Origin: a virus
Taxonomy: Duplodnaviria > Heunggongvirae > Uroviricota > Caudoviricetes
Length of the DNA: 14,879 nucleotides
Strand: one strand, 5' to 3'
IMG/VR virus record: IMGVR_UViG_2667527789_000019
Positions 1 through 6,000 of this stretch are shown piece by piece; the stretch's first letter is position 1, and the number at the start of each line of letters is the position of its first letter. Position numbers: made by a program.

Positions 1-3000
1 ATGCGTATAGGACAAAATCGTTTTTTGGGGGCTATACACATGTTGCTTTCAGACCTTGCTATCCGTCGCGCGAAGCCAAAAGAGAAAGCCTATACACTCA
101 ATGACGGCAACGGGCTTTCGTTACTCATTGAGCCGAACGGTTCGAAGGGCTGGCGATTGCGATACAGGTTTGCAGGCAAGCCCAAAATGTTGTCGCTGGG
201 TGTTTATCCTGAGGTGTCCCTTTCTGATGCTAGGACGGCAAGGGATGAAGCCAAAAGGCTTATCGCTGGTGGAGTTAATCCGAGTGAGGTCAGAAAGGCC
301 CAAAAGCGAGAACAGGCGAACAAATGCGGCAACACCTTTGAGGCGATCGCCCGTGAGTGGTATGAAAAACGCCTGGACCGATGGTCTCCCTCATATGCAG
401 AGGAAATGATAGAGACGTTTGAAAAAGACGTTTTTCCGTACATTGGAGGTAGGCCCATCGCAGAGATTAAGCCGATGGAATTGCTCGCGGTTCTATCCCG
501 TCTTAATGACCGTGGCGCAACTGAAAAATTGCGTAAGGTTCGCCAGCGATGTGGCGAAGTGTTCCGGTACGCAATAATTACCGGACGCGCTGAATATAAC
601 CCCGCTCCTGATCTGGCAAGCGCATTTGCACCACACAAAAAAGAGCATTACGCGTATCTGAAAGTTGATGAGCTACCGGAATTTTTCCGCGTTTTTAATA
701 CGTACACCGGAAGCCAGATCGTCAAGCTGGGTATGCGATTGTTGATTCTTACAGGACTTCGCCCAGGTGAATTACGGCAGGCAGAGTGGCAGGAGATTGA
801 TTTTGATAATCGTCTGTGGGAAGTGCCGAAAGAACGAATGAAAATGCGCCGTCCTCATTGCGTGCCACTTTCAGAACAGGCGATCGCTATTCTGGAACAG
901 TTAAAACACATGACGGGGCAGTATCCGTTTATTTTCCCTGGTCGAATACAGCACAGTAAGCCGATGAGTGAAATGGCTATGAACGTGCTTATTCGTCGTA
1001 TTGGCTATGCAGGGCGCGTTACTGGTCATGGGTTCCGGCATACCATGAGTACGATTTTGCATGAGCAGGGTTATAACTCCGCGTGGATAGAAACGCAGCT
1101 GGCGCACGTCGATAAAAACTCGATCCGTGGCACATACAATCACGCGCAATACCTGGACGGACGGCGGGAGATGCTCCAGTGGTACGCCGACTATATGGAC
1201 TCACTGGAACAGGGCGGTAACGTGGTGCACGGCAAGTTTGGTGTATGTGCATAAAAACGACTGGACAAGTATACAGATGTATACTAACGTACACGGAAAG
1301 CTACAGGTAATATCCTTACAGATGGTTTTTCACGCAGTTACCCCATCATGTATGGACGGCGCTCCTTGTAACAACGAAGATGGAGTCTTCTACGCAGCTG
1401 AAAAGCTGGATGCTCTTTAACAGCCTTTGGTGCTTTCCTGATGCAGGAAAGAATAGGGATACATGCACCTTTACAATGCATGTAATGATTCACCAATGAG
1501 GCTGCGGAGCGCTGACAAAGCGCAATTGCTCTCTTGCCTGCCCACCATGCCCTGAAAAAGGGCGCTCTTTAAAACTACTGGACGTCACGCCTAATCGTGT
1601 GACCCCGCCGAAAAGCGGGAATAGCTCTACCTTGCTGGAGCATACCAACCACCAACCAAACAATCTGAATTTATCTTATGCAATACCACAACATGTTTTC
1701 ATGTTGTGGTTTTTGTCGTGTTCGTAATTTGACGCAAATAAAACTCTTGCTAAGCCACAGGAGGGGATTTTCGCGTCAACATTAAGGAGATTGATAAATG
1801 GCTAATAACAATTCATTCATCCGTCTTTCTGAGGTTATGCGCCGTACTGGTTACGGTCGCGCATGGATTTATCGCCTGATCAGCCTGGGGCGTTTCCCTA
1901 AACCGGTAAAAATTGGTTCCCGCTCCGTGGCTTTTATTGAAAGTGAAGTCGACGAATGGATTAACCAGCGTATTGATGCTTCTCGCAACAACGCCGCGTA
2001 ATAATCTTTTGGGAGGGGGATATTCTCCCCCAGCACTAAACCTGATTCGATAGCAGGAGTTTTCAATGAAACGTCCGAATGTGCCCGTACAGGGGCAGGG
2101 CTTCGTTCAGCCTGAAATCAGCCAGAACGATATATTGATTCGCCACAAAGCAGAGTCGCGTATTGATTCCCGCCTGTTTGCTGAACGCATCGGCATAAAG
2201 CACAAAAGCCTTTATTCGCTTATTCAGAAGCACAAAACCGGATTGCGTGAACTGGGTATCCTTCCGTTTCAAACGGAGCGATTAAAAACCAATCAACACG
2301 GAGAGCGTGAACATAAGTTTGCTCTGCTGAATAGCGATCAGTTTGATTACATGCGCCATATCGTGAGCCATTTCGCCGCTGAGCGTATGAAACACGTTAA
2401 GCAATACTTAGAGGAGGTTTTATCAAATTATCGCGCTGGTGGCTCTGTACGGCGCGAATATTTGCATGATGCAGGAATGGCAGGCAAAACAAAGGCGACC
2501 ACGAAAGGGTCGCCAGTGGAGATAAAGGAAATCAAGCGCATCACCAACTATGCCATGAGTGTAGCTGGTGGACAAGGCTATCAGCCAGGCGGTCGGTTTT
2601 TAGTGGCTTTTAACCGCCGTGGGTATTTCTCGACAAAATCTTCAAGGGCAAATCGTTTTTGTGGGTGTTTTTTCACTCCGGGAAGAGGCGTTAACTCTTC
2701 GGGTTCTGATATCTCTTTAGCGCGTTTCAGTTCCAGTTGGCGCTCAAGTATGCGGTGCAAAAGCTGTCTTCGTTGTTCGGCAAAAATATCTGTAATGGAT
2801 TGGTACTTTTTGTTCATGCTGCTGCCCTGTAAAGCAATGCGCCGTAGTACCTCACACCACGGCGCTGATAGTGATTATTCTGATTCTTTGGCCTTGCGGC
2901 GCTGGCGGCGTTTGATCTCGCCTCGCATGGCTGTAACGATAAATTGCGCAGTGCTCTCGCCTGTTTCTTTTACTTGCTCCATAGCCTCAACAACTTCATG

Positions 3001-6000
3001 CGGGGCGCGAGCCTGTAATTTCTGTGATTTGTTATTGATATGGTCTCTTTCCATTTCTGCTTCCCTTTGTGATTACTGGAATCCAGTATACACGAAAAAG
3101 ACCAAAACAAAACGCTTGAAGTGGATTCCACTTAGTGATTATACTGGAATCCAGTTGAGTGTTTATCACTCAATGCAAACGAGGCTGAAAAGGATTGCCG
3201 TCCTTTCGCAGCCTCTGACCACCAACGATAGCAAGAGTATCGAGGCAGCTATGAGAAATCATATCACACACCCGCAAGGGCGGGACTCGCACAACCTGAA
3301 TAAATTCACCTGGCGCTTTATGCAGTGCCTGACAGACAGCATTGCAATATTCACCGTTACCGCTGCCACTGAGCACGAAGCACGCGCCCAGCTGCCGCAC
3401 GCACATCTTATTTTTGTCGCCCGTATCCGTCAGGAGGTGACTCATGCTTAAAACCTTCCGCGTCTTTTCCCGTGCTGTTAACAAGCGTGGCTATACCGTT
3501 GGCATCACGCAGAACGTGAAGGCCGAAAACGTCCAGGCTGCAATCAGCACAGTAATTAACAAATCAGCTAAAGCCGGTTTATCCGGCGTAATTATCCACG
3601 CCGTTCATGAAATTAAGGGGGTGCAGTAATGCAGGAAATGACACTGGCAGAAGCCTCACTGAAAGCGCAACAGATCGAAGTAATCAGCCGCATGATTGAA
3701 CGCATGATTGAACGCAACCACGAAGAAATAGACGACCATGACCTTTCTGTTATTGCGGGACTTATCAAACAACTTTCCAGCAATGTGGCGGTGTGGTTAA
3801 TGACGGAGGAAGAAAAACGCGGCGAACAATAACGGCTAAAAATAAACGGGAAATAAATATCAAGACGACTCCTTCAGGAGGCTAATTACATGAAATCGAA
3901 AATATCTGGCTTAACTGCCAGTAGCAAAACTCACCCCGAATTTATGTGCGGGGATATTTATCGCGATAAGTACGGCGGCATCGTGACGATTATCAGCACG
4001 AGAGAACGACGCATCACCTACCGCCGTGAAGGGTATGACTATGACTGCGTGATGCCCCTGTATCAGTTCAGTCGTGATTTTTCCCTGATGCAGGCCGTGC
4101 CACGTGGTAAGCCAGCAATACAAAAGCAGAGGCGAACATCCGAAAGATGAAAAACATGATTAACGTATTCAGGAGCAAAAAATGAAAAAAGCACCGAATT
4201 TAAAGCTCCAGCCGAAAGACAAAATGACCGAAGTCATTATCTTTGCAGGTAGTGATGCATGGGCACATGCGAAAGAGTGGAGCGAATGGGCCGGAAAGCA
4301 TATTGCAGCAGATGATACACCGCCCGTTATTCTTGGACCGAAACAACTGGCGAGCCTGGAAGACACAAAAATCATCGACAAAGGGCGCAATTACGTGCGC
4401 GTTTATCGTGCTGGTGAAATATCAGAGACAGCACTTTTACAGATAGCAACACTGCTTGCGGTGGCGGGTGTAAAGGAGGCACGTTGCTACAGCGGCTTTG
4501 TTGACCAGCAGCCGGAGGACTGGACACCGCGCATGGCTGGACTGAAGGATGATGCGGAACGCGGCAACAGCCTGGTGATCAATCTTCCGGCAAAGACAAA
4601 TTTCACCGGAAATTATGATGACGAATTAAAACCCCGCGTTGAATGCCGTCCTGATGGCGTTTATTGGGTTACGCCAAAGGTTGATAAGCAATCAGGCGAA
4701 ATTATACGGCCTGAAACGTGGTTATGTGCTTCGGTTGAATTACTGGGCGCTGGTGTCATTGGTAACGAGCATTACCGCGTGATGCGCTGGACAGATTCGA
4801 CAACAAATCGGCTTGTCACTATGGCCGTGCCTTGCTGCGGAATAGGCGACAGTGACGGCTGGCGGTTACTGAAAGCCAACGGGCTTAAAGTCACGACAAA
4901 CGGAAAACACAGGATCCCCCTGGCTGACTGGATGCAGTTAGGCGGACAGCATGAGGAATGGCACTTAAGCACGAAAGCTGGCTGGCACTTTGGCGCGTAC
5001 ATCATGCCGGACGGTACGGTTATCGGCGAATCTGACAAGCCCGTTTTGTTTACCGGAAAAAGTGCTGCCATTAACGGTTATTCCGTGGCGGGTACGGCGG
5101 ATAGCTGGCGCGACAGCGTGGCGCGGCTGGCTGGTGGTAATCCGTTCATGATGCTGGGCATAGCGACGTCATTATCCGCGCCATTAGTCGGGCTGGTCGG
5201 TGCTGATGGCTTTGGTGTGCATTTTTTCGAAAACTCCACAGCAGGTAAGACCACAACACAAAGCGTGGCATCGAGTTTATGGGGTGATCCTGAAGCGCAG
5301 CGATTAACCTGGTACGGAACAGCGTTAGGCATTGCTAACGAGGCTGAAGCACACAACCACGGGCTTTTACCACTGGATGAGATAGGACAGGCAGCAAGCG
5401 CCCGTGATGTGTACGTATCGGCTTATACGCTGTTTAACGGCTTCGGGAAATTACAGGGGGCAAAGGACGGCGGCAACAGAGAGCTGAAAAACTGGCGGGC
5501 CGTTGCTATCAGCACCGGAGAGGTGGACATTGAAACATTCCTCAAAACCGAGGGGATAAAGGTAAAAGTAGGGCAGCTTGTCCGCCTGCTTAATGTACCG
5601 ATGGAGAAAGCCACGAAATTTCACGAATACAGCAACGGTAAGGAACATGCGGACGCGTTAAAAGAAGCCTGGAAGGAAAACCACGGGGCGGCGGGTCGTG
5701 AGTGGGTTAAATGGCTGTCAGGCCACCAGCAGGAGGCAAAGGATACGGTAAGGGAATGCCGCGAACGGTGGCGCAACCTGATACCGGAGAGCTACGGCGA
5801 GCAGGTCCACCGCGTGGGTGAACGTTTCGCCATACTGGAGGCCGCGCTTGTGCTTTCCGGTCATGTAACTGGCTGGGCCGTGCAGGAATGCCGCGACGCG
5901 ATACTGCACAACTTTAATGCCTGGGTGAAGGTGTTCGGTACGGGGAACAAGGAGCACAAGCAGATTATTGAACAGGCTGAGGCGTTTCTTGCGGCCTATG

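Follow-up and report, generated by a model that had tools for sequence, protein, structure and literature searches.

Small, autoregulating repressors of the ribbon-helix-helix (RHH) kind, with operators on divergent or overlapping promoters, are established for the immI region of Salmonella phage P22, where Arc and Mnt (about 50-80 aa) belong to this class. A similar module is described here for IMG/VR virus record IMGVR_UViG_2667527789_000019 (the window, meaning the whole stretch of 14,879 nt that was analysed), in which a 59-codon gene for an RHH-like protein lies divergent from the replication operon of an integrative island. Judged from the sequence, the module is a repressor-operator system of a known kind, with a predicted RHH repressor. 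In Arc, Q9, N11, and R13 on the antiparallel strand face the DNA; they correspond to K12, Q14, and R16 of the 59-aa protein, and by this pattern residues 12, 14, and 16 would face the DNA. No sequence homology to Arc or Mnt was detectable, and the arrangements differ, as a dimer of dimers of Arc occupies a single 21-bp operator and in P22 the target of control is an antirepressor, whereas the 9-bp cores here number three, lie apart within 80 bp, and would control a replication operon. CopG (RepA) of pMV158 is co-transcribed with its rep gene, whereas the repressor proposed here is transcribed divergently and would act at three sites, including one on the promoter of its own gene.

Among satellites, the closest parallel is Stl/Rpr of the Gram-positive phage-inducible chromosomal islands (PICIs), the SaPIs (Staphylococcus aureus pathogenicity islands), where a repressor is likewise divergent from the excision-replication operon, with intergenic operators (PMC6092414). 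Stl is a larger helix-turn-helix protein that is inactivated by direct binding of a helper protein, whereas the protein here has 59 aa, is RHH-like, and has no obvious sensor domain. The original prediction, made from the window alone, had given the protein the role of an Stl- or CI-type repressor; the divergent position and the boxes on the predicted operon promoter agree with this, whereas helix-turn-helix homology was not found and both family and fold are RHH-like. In P4 (CI RNA) and P1 immI (c4-icd-ant), as here, the repressed operon starts with an Icd-like gene behind a structured, conserved leader. Immunity in P4 and P1 is RNA-based, whereas control here appears to be based on a protein and its operators. 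For some Gram-negative PICIs, C4 and isrK RNAs have been reported from the corresponding zone (PMC10111431).

EcCICFT073 is the prototype Gram-negative PICI. Islands of its type have been reported as unidirectionally transcribed, and AlpA as an activator that is switched on by the helper phage and whose over-expression alone leads to excision and replication (PMC6092414). A later survey puts "Bro-network proteins and immunity RNAs" in the zone considered here and mentions no RHH gene (PMC10111431). The window holds an island integrated at the tRNA-Gly gene adjoining actS of Escherichia coli, with 100% identity to three complete genomes. Its gene order matches that of EcCICFT073, with int, alpA, DUF927, SSB, ProQ/FinO, and PerC in order at the tRNA-Gly site and without phage lysis or tail genes; judged from its genes alone, the island is a member of the EcCICFT073 family of PICIs.

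The reading favoured here, and held to be probable, is that the 59-aa protein is an RHH repressor of a satellite-specific branch of the YlcI/YnfO family, which through three TG-N5-CA operators would shut the replication operon and its own gene. This would be the first function proposed for the PICI-borne branch, and it offers a concrete candidate for the repressor of EcCICFT073, which the literature calls unclear, in the form of a divergent RHH gene with three predicted operators on the replication promoter.

The 59-aa protein and its control region

The 59-codon minus-strand open reading frame (ORF) was confirmed at 2875-3054, and its product is MERDHINNKSQKLQARAPHEVVEAMEQVKETGESTAQFIVTAMRGEIKRRQRRKAKESE. 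The ORF had been described as unannotated; RefSeq carries it as WP_000439004.1, "YlcI/YnfO family protein," function unknown. The product belongs to the YlcI/YnfO family (NF041551) with 72.3 bits against a cutoff of 30 over residues 9-50, and it also matches phrog_949, function unknown. Homologues of 55-65 aa were found across Enterobacterales, and the family is narrow, with 93 representatives at E ≤1e-3 among 1.84 billion cluster representatives. Between 24 orthologues, pairwise differences at codon positions 1, 2, and 3 numbered 3344, 1901, and 6642, a pattern indicating that the ORF is a real coding gene. A tblastn search of 50,697 phage records gave no homologue of the PICI-borne branch, even at E up to 10. 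YlcI/YnfO (DUF3950) of the lambdoid prophages DLP12 and Qin is of the same NF041551 family, size, and strand-helix-helix pattern. Its kinship to the PICI-borne branch is very distant, the link resting on NF041551 and a weak hhalign match (probability 5.6%), so the function proposed here does not carry over to the lambdoid proteins. In the literature searched, with subscription journals outside its coverage, no functional study of YlcI/YnfO/DUF3950 was found and none that links an RHH protein to PICI or satellite control; in a 2026 survey, "YlcI/YnfO, prophage-associated protein" appears as cargo and nothing more (PMC13612085).

No Pfam RHH model reached threshold, and there was no significant match to a curated RHH sequence model. 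Sub-threshold RHH matches were seen to PSK_trans_fac (E 0.024, 16 bits against 28.3) and, in a few homologues, to CB_ParB_C and HicB. Searches of PDB sequences with the single protein and with a profile returned chance matches only (e.g., LptE and ribosomal S20), and a Foldseek search gave no match. The AlphaFold2 model built from a 33-sequence alignment had a mean pLDDT (predicted local distance difference test score) of 84 and consisted of an N-terminal segment and helices at residues 19-28 and 35-58; its best structural matches were RHH proteins, several of the top ones being antitoxins (MazE6, TacA2, MazE4, and VapB12). In the 24 orthologues, K9, S10, R16, P18, G32, E33, Q37, and F38 are invariant, strand positions 13, 15, and 17 are hydrophobic, and the outward-facing positions 14 (seven residue types) and 12 (four types) are the most variable and are polar. 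The strand thus shows the alternation of core and base-contact residues expected of an RHH protein, followed by a conserved G32-E33-S34 turn before helix B. The RHH pattern noted at first reading therefore stands as to the strand residues and the model matches, and it found no counterpart among the curated sequence models or in the Foldseek and PDB sequence searches. With moderate confidence the protein is called RHH-like here, the evidence from sequence being weak and that from structure better.

The matches to antitoxins, together with a co-directional small ORF 57 nt downstream, are what would be expected if the protein were an antitoxin paired with that 78-aa ORF (2581-2817) and the boxes autoregulated the pair only. 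This is highly improbable, as the 78-aa ORF matches no toxin or defence family, is missing from 7 of the 13 E. coli relatives with annotation, and has only a 10-residue motif in common with the small ORFs found elsewhere. A toxin-binding C-terminal domain is lacking in the 59-aa protein, the promoter of the opposite operon holds two of the three boxes, and the conserved co-transcribed toxin partner that marks a type II antitoxin was not found. None of three sequences compared by PADLOC (the RHH protein, the 78-aa ORF, and a nearby Rha-like remnant) matched a defence system.

For the repressor proposed here, the relevant sites lie in the control region upstream of the gene, as follows, PL and PR being the predicted leftward and rightward promoters.

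2875-3054, minus strand: gene for the RHH-like DNA-binding protein; predicted strand at about residues 10-17, helix A at 19-28, G32-E33-S34 turn, and helix B at 35-58 with a basic tail
3060-3067, minus strand: ribosome-binding site of the gene, AAGGGAAG, 5-12 nt before the ATG, read from the sequence
3074-3088: box O1, TACTGGAATCCAGTA, perfect 7-1-7 palindrome; core TGGAATCCA at 3077-3085; covers the -10 and start of predicted PL
3085-3090, minus strand: predicted PL -10, TATACT; its final T doubles as the first O1 core base
3094-3113, plus strand: A-rich tract GAAAAAGACCAAAACAAAAC just 5' of the PR -35; T-rich in gene orientation and kept in all loci
3116-3121, plus strand: PR -35, TTGAAG, from a promoter scan
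3119-3133: box O2, AAGTGGATTCCACTT, perfect palindrome; core 3122-3130; start of the PR spacer, directly after the -35
3138-3165, minus strand: alternative leftward promoter-like site, TAAACA-16-TATAAT; overlaps the PR -10
3140-3145, plus strand: PR -10, TATACT, 18-nt spacer from the -35
3142-3156: box O3, TACTGGAATCCAGTT, one mismatch; core 3145-3153; overlaps the final PR -10 base and the predicted start of transcription

The three palindromes were thus found where they had been reported, two of them perfect 7-1-7 palindromes and one with a single mismatch, and their overlap with the rightward promoter was borne out, with O2 within the spacer and O3 over the end of the -10 and the predicted start. 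Their common 13-mer ASTGGAWTCCAST occurs three times in the window, each time in the control region (3075-3087, 3120-3132, and 3143-3155). At up to two mismatches it has four matches against a mean of 0.81 in dinucleotide shuffles, and 0 of 200 shuffles reached four. The boxes had been described as 15-bp operators; three copies stand at those sites, whereas the part conserved in related islands is a 9-bp TG-N5-CA core, whose centre is non-palindromic in most of them.

PR is predicted to be a conserved, strong-looking, near-consensus sigma-70 promoter, and the A-rich tract may serve it as an UP-like element. The alternative leftward site was ranked below PL, as its -35 was not conserved by eye in the sequences of relatives. 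GGAG- or GAGG-like motifs were seen in orthologues at the position equivalent to the ribosome-binding site.

Box architecture and co-variation in related loci

The control region was compared across 32 related loci of about ten enterobacterial genera, namely 12 from other genera, 13 from E. coli including EcCICFT073, 6 from a later check with four further homologues, and the window itself. Counts of offsets, promoter motifs, and box positions cover 26 loci, with offsets read in gene orientation and counted from the start codon of the RHH gene. TG-N5-CA boxes stand at -31, at -76, and at about -99 to -112 in most loci. A box at -31 from the ATG was found in 24/26 loci, and one at -76 or -77 (-79 in L009) in all 26; three loci (L012, L025, and L027) have two boxes only at the standard offsets, and for the set of 32 as a whole four such loci were counted. 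In all 26, the reverse complement of a -35 of the form TTGA(A/C)N comes next after O2. The PR spacer is 17 or 18 nt in 25 loci and 16 nt in L026, and it leads to a -10-like hexamer. Where the spacer is 18 nt (12 loci), the hexamer reads TATACT or TATAGT and O3 abuts the TATA; elsewhere the match is weaker. TATACT stands at the PL -10 offset on the gene strand in 19/26 loci, and in PR and PL alike a box core opens with the final T of the -10.

It is hardly credible that the palindromes arose by chance or are remnants of repeats and that the ORF goes unexpressed; the ORF is indeed short, and against the idea stand the shuffles, the codon-position pattern, and the retention of box number, spacing, and promoter overlap across many genera.

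The three boxes of any one locus have identical or nearly identical N5 centres; between loci the centre varies, with at least nine types. The centres are GATTC in the window (GAATC in O2), GCACC, AATCG, ACTCC, TGCTC, TGGCC (EcCICFT073), TCAGC, TTGAA, and (G/T)CTTA. Strand residues 10-18 come in one version per centre (SQKLQARAP, SQKMSARVP, SQQLNARFP, SRQKTARVP, SKKMQARVP, SQALKARVP, SKKLEARVP, SQTVAARVP, and SQSLTARIP), and the centre tracks residues 11, 12, and 14 of the predicted DNA-reading strand. Locus pairs that differ by at most one strand residue (n = 33) had the same core in 32 cases and a different one in 1, whereas pairs with more than one strand difference (n = 292) had different cores in 282 cases and the same core in 10.

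The rightward leader behaved otherwise. Among 40 pairs with leaders at least 85% identical, 33 had different cores and 7 the same, and the identity of the leader and icd-like start had a rho of -0.05 with the box core. The loci are also mosaic. L016 and L021 have an identical AlpA (WP_000953271.1) and different boxes, while L018, L019, and L021 share an identical RHH protein and the same boxes and differ from one another in AlpA (three versions), integrase, and replication genes. AlpA is therefore not the determinant of box type, and the leader comparison together with the mosaic loci indicates that linkage alone does not explain the co-variation.

These data bear on a further explanation, in which something other than the RHH protein (AlpA, the Icd-like protein, or a host protein) occupies the boxes and the small ORF is an unrelated passenger. 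AlpA was shown experimentally to be an activator in EcCICFT073 (PMC6092414), and the PHROG families that match the Icd-like ORF are labelled "transcriptional repressor." The explanation is nonetheless quite improbable, since an identical AlpA occurs with different boxes and different AlpAs with identical boxes, leaders and icd-like starts that are 85-93% identical have different boxes, and nine box types within E. coli are not explicable by a host factor.

Four further homologues were fetched after the classes had been defined, with the expected box types not written down beforehand; the boxes expected from the strand class were found in P0034 (Klebsiella; TGGAWTCCA), P0092 (Enterobacter; TGGCACCCA), and P0099 (Dryocola; TGTCTTACA), and P0105 gave a partial match, with TGACTTGCA found against TGACTCCCA expected.

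Some side observations concern individual types. The (G/T)CTTA type (L025 and L027, genes at 2516-2821) has a 101-aa protein with an insertion of about 40 residues before the basic tail, and four boxes were seen there by eye, one of them inverted. L005 and L008 are two islands of one genome, that of Xenorhabdus innexi DSM 16336, with different RHH and box types (TGGAGTACA and TGGCACCCA), which fits heteroimmunity. In E. coli genomes, up to 6 places match the region, and the cassette is carried by roughly 1300 genomes of this species.

Predicted regulation and induction

In the proposed mechanism, RHH dimers would bind the three TG-N5-CA boxes of the 120-bp divergent control region. O2, in the spacer beside the -35, and O3, over the -10 and start, would together exclude RNA polymerase from PR, which is predicted to drive the operon of icd-like, DUF4222, primase/helicase, and SSB genes. 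O1, which covers the -10 and start of the weak promoter of the gene itself, would give negative autoregulation, and O2, centred about 45 bp upstream of the PL start, could also aid weak PL. The invariant TG/CA ends of the boxes are probably read by invariant residues such as R16, and the island-specific N5 centre probably by variable residues 12 and 14, with a contribution of residue 11. Autoregulation and repression of the replication genes had been proposed before; the box positions on PR and on the gene's own -10 fit both, and the co-variation of centre and strand marks the boxes as likely operators. The repressor-operator reading is thus well supported by comparison, and by this comparative evidence binding and the residue-to-base contacts may likewise be presumed. 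As the box is found nowhere else in the island, the regulon would be the divergent promoter pair alone, and the nine or more "immunity types" imply that co-resident islands would not cross-regulate. Beyond the location of the module in the prototype PICI and its fixed three-box architecture, the pairings of box and strand form a readable series, a natural specificity series for RHH-DNA recognition that suggests heteroimmunity between islands in one cell. Even if binding should fail, the region is a well-defined, conserved promoter architecture of these islands.

Several points weigh against the repressor as proposed. L024 and L026 have no O1 at -31 and instead a box at -60 that adjoins O2. PL has no good -35, the best -35 matches being mostly 2-3 of 6. 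L004 and L005 have equal strand residues and cores that differ at two positions. The gene adjoins the boxes, so part of the co-variation is simple co-inheritance, which the mosaic reduces and does not remove. AlpA over-expression alone induces EcCICFT073, so the RHH protein would be no absolute block. As a side observation, the control regions of L024 and L026 are of the TGTTGAACA type, with the extra box directly after the -35 side of O2.

The lack of a PL -35, with the centre of O2 about 45-48 bp upstream of the predicted PL start, also leaves room for a protein that binds the boxes in a mainly non-repressing role, as an activator of PL from O2, a centromere or packaging-site protein, or a replication-origin accessory. 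The sub-threshold matches to the centromere-binding ParB C-terminal RHH domain point the same way, as does K-12 ylcI (L014 6252-6446), which lies beside cos and divergent from the Nu1 homologue nohD. Its place is thus not in a regulatory region, unlike that of the gene here, and no obvious boxes were read by eye upstream of it at -31, -76, and -99, where no dedicated scan was made. In one E. coli relative (L030 2179-2541), a TerS-like gene with a weak DUF3950 match lies just downstream. Such a role is unlikely, as in every locus the boxes keep a fixed position relative to the -35 and -10 hexamers of PR, the window genes include no ParA-type partner, and PICI origins have been reported 3' of the replication gene. 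Activation of PL is moreover compatible with repression of PR and would be an addition more than a rival to it. As an observation in its own right, the L030 gene encodes a 120-aa protein with a Terminase_2 (small terminase) match on the same strand as the RHH gene, and it may link this fold to packaging.

The repressor module favoured here is also present in EcCICFT073, in the current CFT073 RefSeq annotation, between alpA and the icd-like gene, as C_RS30120 (WP_000190587.1) with three boxes and the same leader. The leftward RHH gene is at L029 9474-9653 (NC_004431.1 1380473-1380652), together with a 57-aa ORF. The boxes are GTGTGGCCCAC (two copies) and CTGTCCCCCAC (one copy), of the type TGTGGCCCA, and this island's own box type was found solely in the control region. 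EcCICFT073 thus carries a leftward gene despite its description in the literature as unidirectionally transcribed.

Antirepression by the helper phage at this switch, as the original prediction had it, is not supported, since the cassette is kept in EcCICFT073, where the helper signal enters at alpA and AlpA alone is inducing (PMC6092414). With that signal passing through alpA, the RHH protein may be a maintenance repressor of the replication promoter and not the entry point of the helper signal. The alpA gene lies upstream of and co-directional with the replication operon, and the terminator-like hairpin at 2494-2514 has no T-run on the plus strand, which makes read-through antisense to the RHH gene plausible. 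Derepression would, speculatively, most likely come about via AlpA, by rightward transcription running antisense through the RHH gene into the operon. A wider claim is put forward only tentatively and is rather doubtful, namely that the RHH protein is the missing maintenance repressor of EcCICFT073-type PICIs, with at least nine non-cross-reacting types coded by residues 11, 12, and 14, and with a switch by AlpA-driven convergent transcription and not by an antirepressor.

The rightward transcript could bring a second, RNA-level control layer in its leader, which has the following parts.

3157-3245, plus strand: leader of the rightward operon, about 100 nt, structured and conserved
3157-3173: 5' palindrome or hairpin abutting O3
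3181-3215: GC-rich hairpin
3214-3226: invariant single-stranded TCTGACCACCAAC; across loci UCU(A/G)ACCA(C/A)(C/A)A
3226-3242: small hairpin ending at the Shine-Dalgarno GAGG of the icd-like gene

Compensatory changes were found in 9 of 12 predicted leader pairs (17 loci). Rfam gave no family in the window at gathering scores, and over 2800-3500 there was no match to C4 or isrK at E up to 10, only chance matches at the level of snoRNA and miRNA; RNA-based immunity of the P4/P1 type could thus not be shown in the window. A search for the complement of TCTGACCACCAAC gave nothing above chance.

Neighbouring genes and further features of the window

The other genes and signals of the island that adjoin the control region are listed below.

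1-1254: integrase
1798-2001: alpA
2066-2520, plus strand: Rha-like remnant, judged by eye from the translation
2494-2514, minus strand: terminator-like hairpin with T-run; closes the leftward unit before alpA
2581-2817, minus strand: 78-aa ORF 3' of the RHH gene on the same strand; matches no family
2839-2865, minus strand: 12-bp hairpin with a weak T-tract, directly 3' of the RHH stop codon
3251-3451, plus strand: icd-like, at the head of the rightward operon; 66 aa when read from the ATG at 3251; RefSeq has a shorter form from 3320; NF033153, 54 bits
3444-6320, plus strand: remainder of the tightly packed rightward operon; two small ORFs, DUF4222, and a DUF927 primase/helicase-type replication protein
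4182-6320, plus strand: DUF927 replication protein; followed by SSB, ProQ/FinO, and PerC

The 12-bp hairpin at 2839-2865 may be a partial terminator. A 461-aa plus-strand ORF at 2066-3451 was rejected as a gene, as the part after its first ~150 codons is an open frame that runs antisense to two leftward ORFs, that of the RHH protein and that of 78 aa. Those first codons (2066-2520) resemble by eye a truncated Rha/Bro-type regulator. RefSeq annotates nothing at 2066-2520, where relatives have intact Rha, AntA/AntB, Bro-N, or ORF6N genes. The DUF4222 gene (3890-4150) is flagged by RefSeq as frameshifted. The right end of the window holds a second integrase, of 532 aa (12630-14228), which points to another element in tandem.

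Homologues of the RHH protein were also seen on island-sized "plasmids," namely NZ_CP148328.1 (10.8 kb), NZ_CP142848.1 (10.5 kb), and CP018459.1 (17 kb), and these records may be excised circular islands that were assembled as plasmids. Further repeated perfect palindromes lie in a gene-poor stretch at 10328-11380, 3' of a Q-antiterminator-like gene. TACGAAA(A)TTTTCGTA occurs three times (10328, 11246, and 11365) and ATGGTCATAATGACCAC twice (10926 and 11197), and there is a 42-nt direct repeat at 11220 and 11339. This palindrome-rich stretch may serve as an origin, as a packaging site, or as a further set of operators.

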